Shown here piece after piece: positions 1 to 4,879 of a DNA stretch of 21,583 bases; position 1 is the stretch's first letter; every line of letters begins with the position of its first letter. Location of the stretch: UHGV virus genome UHGV-0131581; one strand, 5' to 3'. Both the position numbers and the translations under genes were made by a program. This DNA is from a virus. The notes below the pieces were generated by a model that was not told the origin of the DNA, did not search any database, and was given only the letters and a program-made list of their open reading frames with translations.

Positions 1-2
1 CG

Positions 3-131
3 CTGAAACTCTTTCTCAAGCATGGGCGGGTCAAGGTCGAGCTGGGTATTTGCCGAGGTAAGGCCCTGCACGACAAGCGAGATTCCCTGAAGAAGAAAGC
101 CATGCGCCGCGACCTTGAAAGGGGCGCCTGA
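3..131 (+). CDS. 3' end of an SmpB-like (tmRNA-binding protein) gene, 5'-truncated by the window edge
   Basis: Frame starting at nt 3 is open to TGA at 129-131 and translates ...[40 protein letters not shown]. The G-x-x-x-GK-x-x-HDKR-x-x-(L/I)K pattern and basic tail match the SmpB C-terminus as I recall it for E. coli (…[25 protein letters not shown]…). From memory only. Confidence 0.4.
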
Positions 132-144
132 TTTATGGTATAAT
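115..144 (+). promoter_or_regulatory. sigma70-type promoter with extended -10 (TTGAAA, 18-nt spacer, TGgTATAAT)
   Basis: TTGAAA at 115-120 and TGGTATAAT at 136-144, overlapping the stop of the upstream ORF; a GGAG Shine-Dalgarno lies about 12 nt before ATG 183. Confidence 0.5.
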
Positions 145-182
145 GCCGAAACATATCCAATACAGAGGAGTAAGATAAGACT

Positions 183-1193
183 ATGTCGATGATGAAAGGT
201 TTCTCGAACGCGTTTCGGATTCCGGAGCTGCGAAAGAAAATTCTGATTACGCTCGGACTCGTGTTCGTGTGCCGCCTCGTGTCGCAGATTCCGACCCCAG
301 GCGTTGACTGGCGTGCCCTTCAGCAGGTGATTGAGACGGCGCGGCAGAATTCTGCCGGTGGCGGGTTGATTGACTGGCTTAGCGTCTTTACTGGTGGTGC
401 TCTCGGGCAGTGCGCAATTGGCTTTCTGTCCATCTGGCCTTACATCTCGGCGCAGATCGTGATTCAGCTTCTTTCGTCTGTCATTCCGTCGCTTCAGAAG
501 TTGAAGAAGGATGGTGAATCTGGACGCCAGCAGCTTGCGCAGATTACACGTTATCTGACGATTGTGCTCTGCGTGGTTCAGTCGTGGGGCATTGCGACGA
601 TGCTCAGCCATCCGGGAGCTCTCGGTCAGGCCTTTGCGGGTGTGAATCTTGTCGTCAATCCTGGGCTTGGGTTCCATCTGATGACGGTCATTGGTATGAC
701 GTCTGCCGCGCTTTTTGTCATGTGGCTTGCTGATCAGATTACGACGTTTGGCGTTGGTAATGGTGCGTCTCTGATTATTATGGTTAACATCACGTCGCGC
801 CTTCCGGACGCATTGATTAGTGCCTGGGAACGTTACTTTGGTTTGGCCGGTGTTCAAGCCTCGGCTCCCATTGCTGAATTGCCCGTGCTGATTGGGTTCT
901 TCCTGCTCGTTGTAATGGGTACGGTGATGCTGACTCAGGGTGTGCGCACAATTGGATTATCGCTCCCGGATTGTTTATTGCTGAAGGCCACAAGGATAAC
1001 GTGCCTGGTAGTCGGTTTTGCTGTGAATGCGGTGCGCGTGAGTGGGACGTTCAGAAATGACCAGCATCTTATTTATCTGGGTATTGTCCGCAGGCCAGAT
1101 GCAACTAGCGGCATCAGAAACGTTTTACTCGATGGAGGCGTGCCAGTCAGCGGCACGCGCCGCGGAGAACGCACACTTCCTGTTTCAGGGTGA
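183..1193 (+). CDS. SecY-like translocon homolog; SecY homology covers about the first 255 residues (nt 183-950), C-terminal ~80 residues unrelated (truncated, fused or decayed)
   Basis: Translation carries SecY signature blocks: FTGGALGQCAIGFLSIWPYISAQIVIQLL, KKDGESGRQQLAQITRY, VMWLADQITTFGVGNGASLII (E. coli SecY: [67 protein letters not shown]). After about LTQGVR no frame shows convincing SecY similarity. ORF is 336 aa versus about 440 for SecY. Confidence 0.6.
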   Translation: MSMMKGFSNAFRIPELRKKILITLGLVFVCRLVSQIPTPGVDWRALQQVIETARQNSAGGGLIDWLSVFTGGALGQCAIGFLSIWPYISAQIVIQLLSSVIPSLQKLKKDGESGRQQLAQITRYLTIVLCVVQSWGIATMLSHPGALGQAFAGVNLVVNPGLGFHLMTVIGMTSAALFVMWLADQITTFGVGNGASLIIMVNITSRLPDALISAWERYFGLAGVQASAPIAELPVLIGFFLLVVMGTVMLTQGVRTIGLSLPDCLLLKATRITCLVVGFAVNAVRVSGTFRNDQHLIYLGIVRRPDATSGIRNVLLDGGVPVSGTRRGERTLPVSG

Positions 1194-1260
1194 CAAGCCC
1201 AACGATTCGGAGGTACGCGCTATCTGCTCACCTAAGCGACTTGGTAAACAGGAGAAGTGA
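1057..1260 (+). CDS. Small protein with N-terminal hydrophobic segment, overprinted on the 3' end of the SecY-like ORF
   Basis: ATG 1057 in the +1 frame relative to the SecY-like ORF; MTSILFIWVLSAGQMQLAAS looks like a signal or TM segment; stop TGA 1258-1260 abuts the next gene's RBS. No strong RBS; could be spurious. Confidence 0.3.
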   Translation: MTSILFIWVLSAGQMQLAASETFYSMEACQSAARAAENAHFLFQGDKPNDSEVRAICSPKRLGKQEK

Positions 1261-2968: not shown

Positions 2969-2997
2969 TTGACTATTACTCTTACACCAATTATATT
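2969..2997 (+). promoter_or_regulatory. sigma70-type promoter (TTGACT, 17-nt spacer, TATATT) driving the small-ORF cluster
   Basis: TTGACT at 2969-2974 and TATATT at 2992-2997. Confidence 0.55.
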
Positions 2998-3104
2998 TAC
3001 TTCATCGATAACGAGAACGGAGTAGAGAAGATGAGTAACTTCCATAACGAACATGTGATGCAGTTCTACCGCAATAATCTGAAAACTAAAGGAGTGTTTG
3101 GAAA

Positions 3105-3254
3105 ATGAAAATCACAGATATCGAGGCATTCGAAGACGCACAACTGATGGCACGTATTGCCGTTAGTAACCTGGGTGGAAACATTCCTGCGGAGTGGTTC
3201 TGGTCCGCAGCGATGAAGGCGCTTAAAGCAGCTTATGCAGGAGAGAAGAAATGA
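3105..3254 (+). CDS. Small hypothetical protein (49 aa)
   Basis: ATG 3105 preceded by AAAGGAG; translates [49 protein letters not shown]; stop overlaps next start (ATGA). Below the ORF-track length cutoff. A 25-codon ORF (3031-3108) upstream is also coupled by ATGA. Confidence 0.45.
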
Positions 3255-3409
3255 GCGAACAAGGCCCAGCAAGCCAGCCATTACGTGTAGGCCTTAAAGT
3301 CAACCACACCCCGTTCCCGACACGCGAGGAACTAATGAAACGTAACAGTTTCCCGGGGCCGGACAAGAACAAGTATCTCAATCGCATGTGGGGAGAGCGT
3401 AAAGAATGA
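3251..3409 (+). CDS. Small hypothetical protein (52 aa)
   Basis: ATG 3251 overlapping the upstream stop; translates [52 protein letters not shown]; stop overlaps ATG 3406 (ATGA). Confidence 0.4.
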   Translation: MSEQGPASQPLRVGLKVNHTPFPTREELMKRNSFPGPDKNKYLNRMWGERKE

Positions 3410-3603
3410 CTGACCGTGAATACGAAAAGATGATGGTAGAGGCCGTTAACGGCGGCGTAGACATCGGTAACGTGATGCACGTCCTGAATACTAAAATCGC
3501 GGTAGCTGAACAAATGGTGGAGTCGCTTTACGAGACACGCCGTGAACTTATCAACCGCTTCAACCTGAACAAAGTCCCGGGCGATGGATATGAAAGCGCC
3601 TGA
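3406..3603 (+). CDS. Small hypothetical protein (65 aa)
   Basis: Track ORF; ATGA coupling with the upstream gene; same strand and spacing as the neighbouring small genes. Confidence 0.5.
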   Translation: MTDREYEKMMVEAVNGGVDIGNVMHVLNTKIAVAEQMVESLYETRRELINRFNLNKVPGDGYESA

Positions 3604-3772
3604 ACCAGTAGTTATCGATGGCGTCCTGTGGAAACCCTACTCGGTTAACCACATCGACGCCGACGGAAAGAGGTTCAGCTTCTACATTTTTGCAATTAGC
3701 CGTGAGCACGCCGCCTGTGTGGTCGACGATATACGAGAAACGGCGTGGCTTGGTGACGAGATAGTGGGGTGA
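3584..3772 (+). CDS. Small hypothetical protein (62 aa)
   Basis: Track ORF overlapping the 3' end of the previous gene; part of the coupled small-gene run. Confidence 0.45.
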   Translation: MDMKAPEPVVIDGVLWKPYSVNHIDADGKRFSFYIFAISREHAACVVDDIRETAWLGDEIVG

Positions 3773-3776
3773 GAGT

Positions 3777-4058
3777 ATGGCACGTACTGTTTCCGCGAGA
3801 TTCACTGATATTGAATCCGCTATAGAAGAAGCCGTTTATTGTAGATTTTGCAACCCCTCCGCGGTACATAACTACGGAGTTATTGTTAAATATGGCAAGT
3901 TTGAGGTTAGAAGGGTGCGCGCCGACCGTCCATACGAGTTTTTATGGACAACAGAAAGCCTCATCCCGCGGTGCCACATTTACACAAGCGGTGTACATAC
4001 TATTTTTGTAGACCTTAACAAGAAAGATATTACCGTCACTAAAGGAGAGACAAATTGA
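3777..4058 (+). CDS. Small hypothetical protein (93 aa)
   Basis: Track ORF; GAGAG just upstream of ATG 3777; stop overlaps next start. Confidence 0.5.
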   Translation: MARTVSARFTDIESAIEEAVYCRFCNPSAVHNYGVIVKYGKFEVRRVRADRPYEFLWTTESLIPRCHIYTSGVHTIFVDLNKKDITVTKGETN

Positions 4059-4291
4059 TTACCAGCATCCCTAAACTGATTGAAAAGTACGGAAATATGT
4101 CGGAGACTTGCCGACAAACCGGTATCTGCGAGATGACGATTGCGAAGTACAGCAAAGACGTTGATTGCGAGCGCCACGTAATTTATAACAACCGTCTGAT
4201 GACGCACGTTAAGACAAGCCCGGTGTTATTCACGCGCCGGGGTATCACTAAAACTGAGCAACGCATTGCTAAAGAGGAGAGCAGGGAATGA
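4055..4291 (+). CDS. Small putative DNA-binding protein (78 aa, HTH-like segment)
   Basis: SETCRQTGICEMTIAKY resembles a helix-turn-helix recognition unit; coupled to both neighbours. Confidence 0.45.
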   Translation: MITSIPKLIEKYGNMSETCRQTGICEMTIAKYSKDVDCERHVIYNNRLMTHVKTSPVLFTRRGITKTEQRIAKEESRE

Positions 4292-4470
4292 TTGAGTTTT
4301 TGAAGGCACTTGATGCCGCGGGCAACCTGGTATTTTGGCTGGCCTTTTTCGTTGTGCTGATAAAACAACCGACTTTGTTTAACAGTCTTCCTGGCCATCT
4401 GTGGTGGCCTATGTTTTTAGGCATGGGGGTAACAGGAGTGGCAGGCGTCCTGTTGTGGTTTTTCAAATGA
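4288..4470 (+). CDS. Small membrane protein (60 aa, two hydrophobic helices)
   Basis: LVFWLAFFVVLI and WWPMFLGMGVTGVAGVLLWFF; GGAGAGCAGGGA upstream of ATG 4288. Confidence 0.5.
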   Translation: MIEFLKALDAAGNLVFWLAFFVVLIKQPTLFNSLPGHLWWPMFLGMGVTGVAGVLLWFFK

Positions 4471-4582
4471 GACTACTAATCATACCAAACGCCTGGGCTA
4501 TTGCCGTAGCTAACGACCACTACGGCGGCGATGGTAAAAGAGCACCTCGACACGGCCTATATAATTGATTGGAGAGCGAGAG

Positions 4583-4798
4583 ATGAAAGATATGGAACCC
4601 TTCAAGTGGAACCGCTCCGGAATACCACAACACGGCGAATACCCGGAACCGTATAAAAAGGTCGACGTGATAACAAGAAGCAAAGGACGAGATAAAAGTA
4701 TTAACTCCGGACAAGCGTACTGGAGCGGGTATAAGTGGCAGGGGCTTGATGGCTTTAAGATAGGATATTCCCGTGTAATACGCTGGATTGAATATTGA
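4583..4798 (+). CDS. Hypothetical protein (71 aa)
   Basis: ATG 4583 preceded by GGAGAG (4571-4576); the track's TTG 4565 start is treated as an over-extension. Confidence 0.45.
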   Translation: MKDMEPFKWNRSGIPQHGEYPEPYKKVDVITRSKGRDKSINSGQAYWSGYKWQGLDGFKIGYSRVIRWIEY

Positions 4799-4801
4799 TA
4801 C

Positions 4802-4825
4802 AAGCCCTCTACGGAGGGCTTTTCT
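4802..4825 (+). terminator. Rho-independent terminator
   Basis: AAGCCCTC (4802-4809), loop TACG, GAGGGCTT (4814-4821), then TTCT. Confidence 0.65.
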
Positions 4826-4879
4826 GTACATCCCGCCCAATCCCCTTATATAATCCATTTAGACGCGTAGGGCGCGTCT
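4825..4879 (+). promoter_or_regulatory. Promoter-like element (TGTACA, 18 nt, TATAAT at 4849-4854) followed by a perfect 7-bp hairpin (4861-4879) upstream of the terminase small subunit gene
   Basis: -10 TATAAT read directly; AGACGCG-TAGGG-CGCGTCT palindrome at 4861-4879. Confidence 0.4.

Follow-up and report, generated by a model that had tools for sequence, protein, structure and literature searches.

Introduction

Phage T4 encodes Stp, a peptide of ~26 residues that is both required and enough by itself to switch on PrrC, a latent tRNA-Lys anticodon nuclease, via the associated type IC restriction enzyme EcoprrI, and that was found experimentally to inhibit type IC restriction, acting on EcoR124I but not on type IA enzymes (PMC3014915). 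Its N-terminal 18 residues, almost absolutely conserved among T4 relatives, are the probable EcoprrI-interaction region, and most loss-of-function mutations cluster at residues 4–14; for the way in which Stp gained both its anti-restriction and its nuclease-activating role, the same T4 review points to the primary literature (PMC3014915). Here we describe a homologue of this peptide at the head of an array of small genes in a stretch of 21,583 nucleotides of the virus genome UHGV-0131581 (hereafter the window, i.e., the whole stretch that was analysed). A 2-kb region containing the array, together with its flanks, is 86–94% identical at the DNA level to dozens of Kagunavirus (Guernseyvirinae) siphophage genomes, and the window is assigned on this sequence similarity to a Kagunavirus-type siphophage of Escherichia coli.

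T4 carries hypermodified DNA that largely resists type I restriction, and the benefit that T4 itself would draw from the anti-restriction activity of Stp is not obvious. Small counter-defence or host-directed genes are also known from the early class I region of T7 (e.g., those for Ocr and Gp2), where they are promoter-proximal and dependent on the host polymerase, while the nin region of lambda lies between the replication gene P and the antiterminator gene Q of a temperate phage. Lambdoid nin regions consist of very small, packed and partly overlapping genes that are mostly uncharacterised and include members of the NinH (PF06322) and DUF2737 (PF10930) families. The NinH protein of lambda forms a Fis-like homodimer with DNA-binding and DNA-bending activity, and its overexpression is toxic (PMC7166090). 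Accessory regions, finally, occupy a set place in the genome and hold a changing collection of small genes with fast turnover, some of which serve counter-defence, and Stp was a known control in the screen that addressed them (Silas et al., bioRxiv 10.1101/2023.04.06.535777).

The window array shares traits with each of these systems and differs from each. Its first gene product corresponds to T4 Stp in length and sequence, and by this likeness would be expected to inhibit type IC enzymes and to activate PrrC in prr+ cells. However, its carrier is a 41–45 kb siphophage instead of a T-even myophage, its gene stands first behind a sigma-70-type promoter instead of between ndd and ac, and the tRNA-repair genes for Pnk and Rnl1 that accompany it in T4 have no counterpart here, as homologues of pseT and rnlA were found neither in the window nor in Ro145clw, a complete genome that bears stp (tblastn E ≥ 1.3; Ro145clw annotation). 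The packed small genes with NinH-family and DUF2737 members recall the lambdoid nin region, whereas the window array is located after the lysis genes and before the terminase genes in a phage classed as virulent and has its own putative promoter and terminator, and the NinH score of its ORF7 barely exceeds the cut-off (31.5 versus 29.8 bits). With accessory regions and T7 class I genes the array has in common the small size and clustering of its members, their fixed place in the genome, the variability of several slots and a predicted promoter-proximal expression by the host polymerase, but only one of these has a known counter-defence function and about half of them are conserved core genes. 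Overall, we consider it likely that the array is a self-contained accessory-gene operon of Kagunaviruses, situated between the lysis cassette and the packaging genes and led by Stp.

An Stp homologue heads an array of small genes

The gene order in the window runs from the holins via the endolysin (PF00959) to the array of small open reading frames (ORFs), and from there to the small terminase, the large terminase (PF03237/PF17289) and the portal. The first ORF of the array is the following:

3031–3108, + strand: ORF1 (stp), 25 amino acids (aa), identified via PF08133, phrog_6763 and alignment to T4 stp

ORF1 scored 70 bits against the PF08133 family (‘Anticodon nuclease activator’; cut-off of 25 bits), with its residues 1–25 falling on profile positions 1–25 of 26, and matched phrog_6763 (‘activator of host PrrC lysyl-tRNA endonuclease’) with an E-value of 5.3e-20. 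It was 96% identical to annotated T4 Stp over the full 25-aa query, and when both genes were aligned, all 24 aligned residues (i.e., residues 1–24, including the complete N-terminal stretch of 18) and 63 of the 72 nucleotides proved identical, with nine synonymous and zero non-synonymous changes among the nine differing codons. The flanks of stp in the window, in contrast, are unrelated to those of T4 stp. Among six relatives, the ratio of non-synonymous to synonymous polymorphism (pN/pS) of stp was 0.02. ORF1 is thereby recognisable as a homologue of T4 Stp, and the initial annotation, in which none of the small ORFs matched a known family, has to be revised for ORF1 (PF08133) as well as for ORF3 (PF10930) and ORF7 (PF06322). 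The T-even gene context (ndd-stp-ac) is absent from the window, where stp is the first gene behind a promoter after the endolysin; since such context is no part of the Pfam definition, membership of PF08133 stands regardless. A tblastn search with ORF1 returned 614 phage records, and most of the records listed were T-even-like genomes of 160–190 kb, with weaker Stp-like matches also in phages of ~50 kb.

Codon 21 of stp, which lies within window segment 3085–3108, reads GGC in T4 and GGA or GGG in the Kagunavirus copies. In the window this change creates the sequence AAGGAG 11 nt upstream of the ORF2 start, so that a synonymous change would supply a Shine-Dalgarno sequence for the next gene.

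Eight ORFs on the + strand span 3031–4470, which bears out the chain of 25–93-codon frames with ATGA or other short overlaps that had been noted from the sequence. Their junctions comprise four ATGA overlaps, one TTGA overlap, one overlap of 14–20 nt and one gap of 4 nt, and most of the ORFs are preceded by a Shine-Dalgarno sequence. Since all eight match PHROG families (E ≤ 1e-19) and show low pN/pS in the proposed frames (0.02–0.37, with up to 32 distinct relatives), they can be regarded as translated genes; NCBIfam gave no match for any of them. There is next to no probability that they are accidental frames or annotation artefacts within an extended non-coding spacer. ORFs of 25–60 codons are indeed common by chance, with many occurring on both strands, and the promoter scan was not enriched over shuffled sequences, but the PHROG matches of all eight ORFs, three Pfam matches above the cut-off, the pN/pS values and a gene order that is common to dozens of phages all argue otherwise. 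A ninth ORF (4584–4798) follows ORF8 and extends the unit beyond 4470; the array does precede the packaging genes as initially described, whereas its limit of eight ORFs does not hold.

The array as a putative transcription unit

The array is flanked by the following signals:

2915–2946, + strand: intrinsic terminator closing the holin/endolysin cassette (hairpin 2915–2939, T-run (T8) 2939–2946)
2969–2997, + strand: sigma-70-type promoter TTGACT-N17-TATATT (promoter scan, 10 of 12 consensus matches)
3019–3030, + strand: shared leader Shine-Dalgarno sequence GGAGTAGAGAAG (alignment of promoter-proximal regions)
4803–4824, + strand: hairpin terminator AGCCCTC-TACG-GAGGGCT followed by TTTTCT (fold of –15.6 kcal/mol, directly after the ORF9 stop)
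4825–4854, + strand: promoter-like site TGTACA-18-TATAAT preceding the gene for the small terminase (scan; conserved in ~30 loci)

The upstream terminator hairpin has a fold of –13.8 kcal/mol (z = –3.1 versus shuffles) and is kept in every locus of Kagunavirus type. Loci L035, L041 and L043 show compensatory substitutions in the stem, and in divergent relatives CCCGGC/GCCGGG has become CCCGGTAA/TTACCGGG. The promoter scan by itself carried no significance (5 sites versus 3.6 ± 1.7 in shuffles). Both promoter hexamers and their 17-nt spacing are, however, exactly preserved in all 36 of the Kagunavirus-type loci that were located, while many positions of the spacer vary, and it is this conservation amid a drifting spacer, not the scan, for which the promoter is taken as real. 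The initially proposed arrangement of a terminator followed by a TTGACT-N17-TATATT promoter is thereby upheld, with both elements conserved.

Depending on the phage, the same leader GGAGTAGAGAAG stands before stp, ORF2 or other genes, and this leader Shine-Dalgarno is predicted to serve any gene that occupies the first slot. At the other end, the hairpin at 4803–4824 is conserved in ~30 loci irrespective of the gene upstream of it, and the promoter-like site at 4825–4854 is placed as the boundary of the small-gene unit. Because the promoter at 2969–2997, this second terminator and the next promoter-like site bound the array, it looks like a transcription unit of its own, consisting of a promoter, nine ORFs and a terminator.

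Some further signals were observed in and next to this unit. Within the last part of ORF8 (4393–4456, + strand), the terminator scan picked out two weak hairpins that resemble terminators, and it missed the stronger, conserved hairpin at 4803–4824. Upstream of the array, a second sigma-70-like site (TTGACA-17-GATACT; 2847–2875, + strand) overlaps the endolysin stop codon and is followed by a C/U-rich stretch of ~45 nt and then by the upstream terminator, an arrangement from which an RNA of ~65 nt would result (2847–2946). Kagunavirus loci, even those in which the spacer or the upstream gene differs, retain the hexamers of this site, a CAUCCCUCU core and the terminator. The C/U-rich stretch contains AUCACCUCCU, which we take to be identical to the 3′ end of 16S rRNA, and Rfam returned for this stretch only sub-threshold matches to C/U-rich anti-Shine-Dalgarno small RNAs (RF02278, 24.7 bits versus a cut-off of 50; RF02837). 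Pairing of the stretch with the leader Shine-Dalgarno and start codon was considered as well and dismissed, as the predicted duplex of –18 to –24 kcal/mol (z = +0.2 to –3.2, typically ~–1.5, against dinucleotide shuffles of the C/U-rich segment) is indistinguishable from an effect of composition. The 2847–2946 segment may encode a small RNA, or it may be no more than the 3′ untranslated region of the lysis genes.

A conserved scaffold with cassette slots

Comparison among relatives divides the genes of the array in two groups. ORF2, ORF3, ORF4 and ORF7 occur in nearly every Guernseyvirinae locus, including distant Jerseyvirus-like loci at 33–70% identity, and ORF5 is present in nearly all Kagunavirus-type loci. 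Conversely, ORF6 and ORF8 occur sporadically, stp was found in ~6 of ~33 distinct loci of the Kagunavirus type, and ORF9 is confined to L004 and L005, both of which represent the window's own phage. Carriers of stp include hz69, Ro145clw and RP180, and ULINTec2 is a sister phage that lacks it. The array therefore is only in part variable cargo, i.e., stp, ORF6, ORF8 and ORF9 vary among relatives and the four widespread genes are core.

The alignment revealed stp to be a precise 74-nt insertion at the first ATG of the operon relative to stp-less relatives, with ATGA on both sides. In stp-less phages the leader GGAGTAGAGAAG runs directly into the ATG of ORF2, so that the insertion would let stp take over the leader Shine-Dalgarno and leave ORF2 overlapping the stp stop codon. 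In other phages, the first slot holds unrelated genes of 62–65 aa (L006; L003/L024), for which neither a Pfam nor a PHROG match was found, and scans of the alternative slot occupants against both databases assigned a function to none of them. ORF9 likewise constitutes an insertion, flanked by ATTGAT repeats. Given the stp and ORF9 insertions and the alternative slot occupants, the unit can be described at the sequence level as a conserved scaffold with cassette slots. The array behaves as an accessory-gene hot spot, in that stp, ORF6, ORF8 and ORF9 come and go among close relatives and their slots are taken elsewhere by other uncharacterised genes.

A variant arrangement was observed in L033 (L033:5817-5940), where another gene sits in the first slot, the ATG of stp is replaced by TCA and the reading frame extends back, without a stop, to a GTG further upstream. 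This stp copy would encode an N-terminally extended Stp variant of 31 aa, starting with MKEYPSSNFHNEH.

Many published genomes contain the array, with its products annotated almost wholly as hypothetical proteins. The stp ORF is unannotated in K1ind3, in RP180 and in the annotation table of Ro145clw, as it is in most Kagunavirus records. In the literature that was searched, PrrC is not mentioned together with Kagunavirus, Guernseyvirinae, Jerseyvirus or K1-ind, and ‘Kagunavirus’ and ‘Stp’ co-occur in a single paper, once each. While Stp, NinH and DUF2737 are known families, the carriage of stp by Kagunaviruses thus appears to have been overlooked.

The NinH-like protein and the other members of the array

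Besides stp and ORF5 (see below), the unit comprises the following genes:

3105–3254, + strand: ORF2, 49 aa (phrog_2180; pN/pS = 0.16); core gene, and the first operon gene in stp-less relatives
3251–3409, + strand: ORF3, 52 aa, DUF2737 (PF10930, 39.4 bits versus a cut-off of 25; phrog_4684); core gene
3406–3603, + strand: ORF4, 65 aa (phrog_1402; pN/pS = 0.06); core gene
3777–4058, + strand: ORF6, 93 aa (phrog_5407); sporadic accessory gene
4055–4291, + strand: ORF7, 78 aa, NinH-like (Fis-like helix-turn-helix), TTG start (PF06322, phrog_268); core gene
4288–4470, + strand: ORF8, 60 aa, two hydrophobic helices (phrog_10956; pN/pS = 0.37); sporadic accessory gene
4584–4798, + strand: ORF9, 71 aa, with its own Shine-Dalgarno and an alternative TTG start at 4565 (phrog_29435); rare cassette

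The PHROGs of ORF2, ORF4, ORF5, ORF6 and ORF9 have no assigned function, and sequence searches of the PDB with ORF2, ORF4 and ORF7 yielded nothing significant. ORF6 belongs to a narrow family of 22 clusters, none of them less than 66% identical, its AlphaFold2 model was unusable (predicted local distance difference test (pLDDT) score of 44), and phage fEg-Eco06 carries a shorter ORF6 variant (phrog_5407, 56 aa; 27% identical by BLASTP) at the same position. The two-helix membrane protein that had been noted in the array corresponds to ORF8, which has hydropathy peaks at residues 10–25 and 41–58, and the protein with a helix-turn-helix-like segment corresponds to ORF7.

For ORF7, residues 5–52 align with positions 8–56 of the 60-position PF06322 profile, at the small margin above the cut-off given earlier, and one relative has an ATG at the position of its TTG start. 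ORF7 is classed from this match as a NinH/Fis-like DNA-binding protein rather than as a defence inhibitor, and by analogy with lambda NinH it most likely binds and bends DNA. Some of the relations of ORF4 were observed alongside. The phrog_268 profile (119 positions) is matched by ORF4 over its N-terminal 41 positions and by ORF7 over positions 44–117; a protein in which the ORF4-like N-terminus is fused to NinH thus seems to exist in other phages, and such a fusion gives a hint that ORF4 and ORF7 work together. Moreover, some ORF4 homologues (Ro145clw, L002:3570-3815, and relatives) carry a C-terminal cysteine-rich extension, CEHEFDYNPKDMCGQCIKCG, which is the probable reason why certain Kagunavirus records list a ‘zinc finger protein’.

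These findings bear on a different interpretation, in which the array is a nin-like regulatory or DNA-handling module for the phage’s own DNA transactions or for a packaging switch, with stp merely a passenger. NinH and DUF2737 are the only recognisable families besides Stp, the persistence of ORF2, ORF3, ORF4 and ORF7 even in distant Jerseyvirus-like loci resembles that of housekeeping genes rather than of arms-race genes, the array lies directly upstream of the terminase genes, and the phrog_268 fusion would fit joint action of two of the core proteins. On the other hand, no ORF matched a packaging, replication or recombination family in the Pfam, PHROG and NCBIfam scans, the array has a promoter and a terminator that set it apart from the packaging genes, several of its slots are variable, and Stp has a defined anti-restriction role. 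We therefore regard such a module as an unlikely description of the array and favor an accessory operon led by Stp.

ORF5 and the RNA polymerase inhibitor label

The fifth gene of the array deserves separate treatment, since two GenBank records annotate a homologue that is 95–98% identical to it as an RNA polymerase inhibitor ‘similar to 2LMC_A’ (i.e., T7 Gp2):

3584–3772, + strand: ORF5, 60–62 aa (phrog_10509); homologues start at 3590, the likely start

If this label were correct, ORF5 would be a Gp2-type inhibitor of the host RNA polymerase and the operon a module for shutting off host transcription. An exhaustive HMMER search enlarged the ORF5 family to 71 representatives, 48 of which were aligned, and the T7 Gp2 sequence used for comparison was checked and found identical to 2WNM_A. 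The Gp2 family PF16857 was matched neither by ORF5 (at E ≤ 1) nor by any of the 48 aligned family members (at E ≤ 0.1), and Gp2 was not found among PDB sequences by phmmer with ORF5 or by hmmsearch with the family profile. For the comparison of the ORF5 profile with an 18-member Gp2 alignment, hhalign returned a probability of 0.8% when a shallow profile was used and of 28% when a deep one was used (the latter over 31 columns, covering a beta-beta-alpha core).

The AlphaFold2 model of ORF5 (pLDDT of 82) contains strands at residues 7–9, 12–22 and 28–35 and a helix at 38–51. Foldseek gave no PDB match for this model at E ≤ 0.001, and Gp2 was absent among the 50 matches listed; against BFVD, only uncharacterised viral proteins rose above noise. 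ORF5 is thus predicted to be a small protein of beta-sheet plus helix, the modelled shape of which resembles small phage-encoded protein inhibitors. Several of these inhibitors, namely Gp2, Dmd, AcrIF9 and p56, are among the weak structural matches to ORF5.

In T7 Gp2, the arginines of the R-V-R-P motif contact the beta-prime jaw. This invariant C-terminal motif (R56-V57-R58-P59) has no counterpart in ORF5 or its family, the members of which end in ...W-L-G-D-E-I-V-G (LGDEIVG in ORF5). The whole-genome annotation of Ro145clw, furthermore, lists no phage RNA polymerase, and these phages appear to rely on that of the host, so that a shut-off in the manner of Gp2 would be self-defeating unless tightly timed. 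The Gp2 assignment of ORF5 is consequently a lead and not a finding, and a host-transcription shut-off module is a quite improbable description of the operon.

Origin of the window

An IMG/VR contig of 43.6 kb (L005) matches the window at 99–100% protein identity for the endolysin, all nine small ORFs and the two terminase genes. A prophage origin was considered and rejected, as neither the array region (megablast) nor window positions 1–1200 (blastn) had a match in 5,426 complete E. coli genomes, and the window is read as part of a virulent-phage genome. At its very start, an ORF at 183–1193 (+ strand) matches the N-terminal half of SecY over residues 82–259 (PF00344, E = 1.3e-41). The ~950 bases that hold this SecY-like segment (window 1–947) had no match in Kagunavirus or E. 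coli genomes, and this start of the window falls near the end of the IMG/VR contig. The SecY-bearing stretch probably stems from chimeric assembly at the end of the sequence or from the capture of foreign DNA.

A model for the Stp-led operon

In the model that we propose for the Stp-led accessory operon, host RNA polymerase with sigma-70 would start transcription at the 2969–2997 promoter, after which the strong leader Shine-Dalgarno would load ribosomes on the first gene and the ATGA, TTGA and short overlaps would pass them down the nine genes by putative translational coupling. Transcription would end, at least partly, at the 4803–4824 hairpin, before the packaging promoter. The resulting chain would mix core genes (ORF2, ORF3, ORF4 and ORF7, plus ORF5 within the genus) with cassettes (stp, ORF6, ORF8 and ORF9). 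By homology to T4, Stp would bind type IC complexes (EcoprrI/EcoR124I class) and keep them from restricting the phage DNA, whereas in hosts carrying prrC this same binding would unleash the tRNA-Lys anticodon nuclease. With polynucleotide kinase and RNA ligase 1 both missing from these phages, PrrC activation would abort the infection. The remaining genes would be candidate host-modifying proteins.

Kagunaviruses have been described as highly sensitive to restriction-modification systems, although type IC systems are not named in the excerpted text of that preprint (bioRxiv 10.1101/2024.09.12.612763), and an anti-restriction gene would therefore plausibly be useful to them. The window phage presumably also lacks the glucosyl-hydroxymethylcytosine modification of T4 DNA, and with such unmodified DNA and no repair genes, anti-restriction would matter here and the PrrC liability would go unrepaired.

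Several points weigh against this model. Stp activity has been demonstrated for the T4 peptide only and is attributed to the window peptide by homology, and the C-terminus of the latter differs (K25 versus R25-Q26 in T4 Stp). A peptide that is made after DNA entry may also come too late to protect unmodified siphophage DNA. The timing of expression and the use of the promoter by the host polymerase are deduced from consensus and conservation, and the short T-tract of the second terminator (TTTTCT) makes read-through into the packaging genes possible. In addition, functional evidence is limited to two of the nine ORFs, and the published ‘RNA polymerase inhibitor’ label of ORF5 is not supported here. 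The initial proposal that the array would serve host takeover and anti-defence accordingly gains support from the Stp homologue and from the hot-spot behavior of the locus, and finds none in the other eight ORFs.

As a tentative extension of the Stp-led operon, the slot behind the conserved promoter may be a plug-in site for counter-defence cassettes, of which Stp would be the only occupant that can be read. The first-slot genes of L006 and L003/L024, and possibly ORF2, the DUF2737 gene, ORF4 and ORF5, would then be uncharacterised inhibitors of defence or of the host machinery, with Stp protecting unmodified DNA. If true, Stp would in siphophages with unmodified DNA do the job that was originally proposed for it, i.e., protection from type IC restriction, and these phages would be natural triggers of PrrC that are unable to repair the damage.

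Implications

Stp-bearing and stp-less sister phages, which lie a 74-nt cassette apart, offer a natural system in which to study the protection of unmodified DNA from type IC enzymes by Stp. The same sister phages also provide a natural system for the exclusion by PrrC of phages that bring the trigger along without the means of repair. Kagunaviruses are under development for the therapy of urinary-tract E. coli infections, where the determinants of host range matter.

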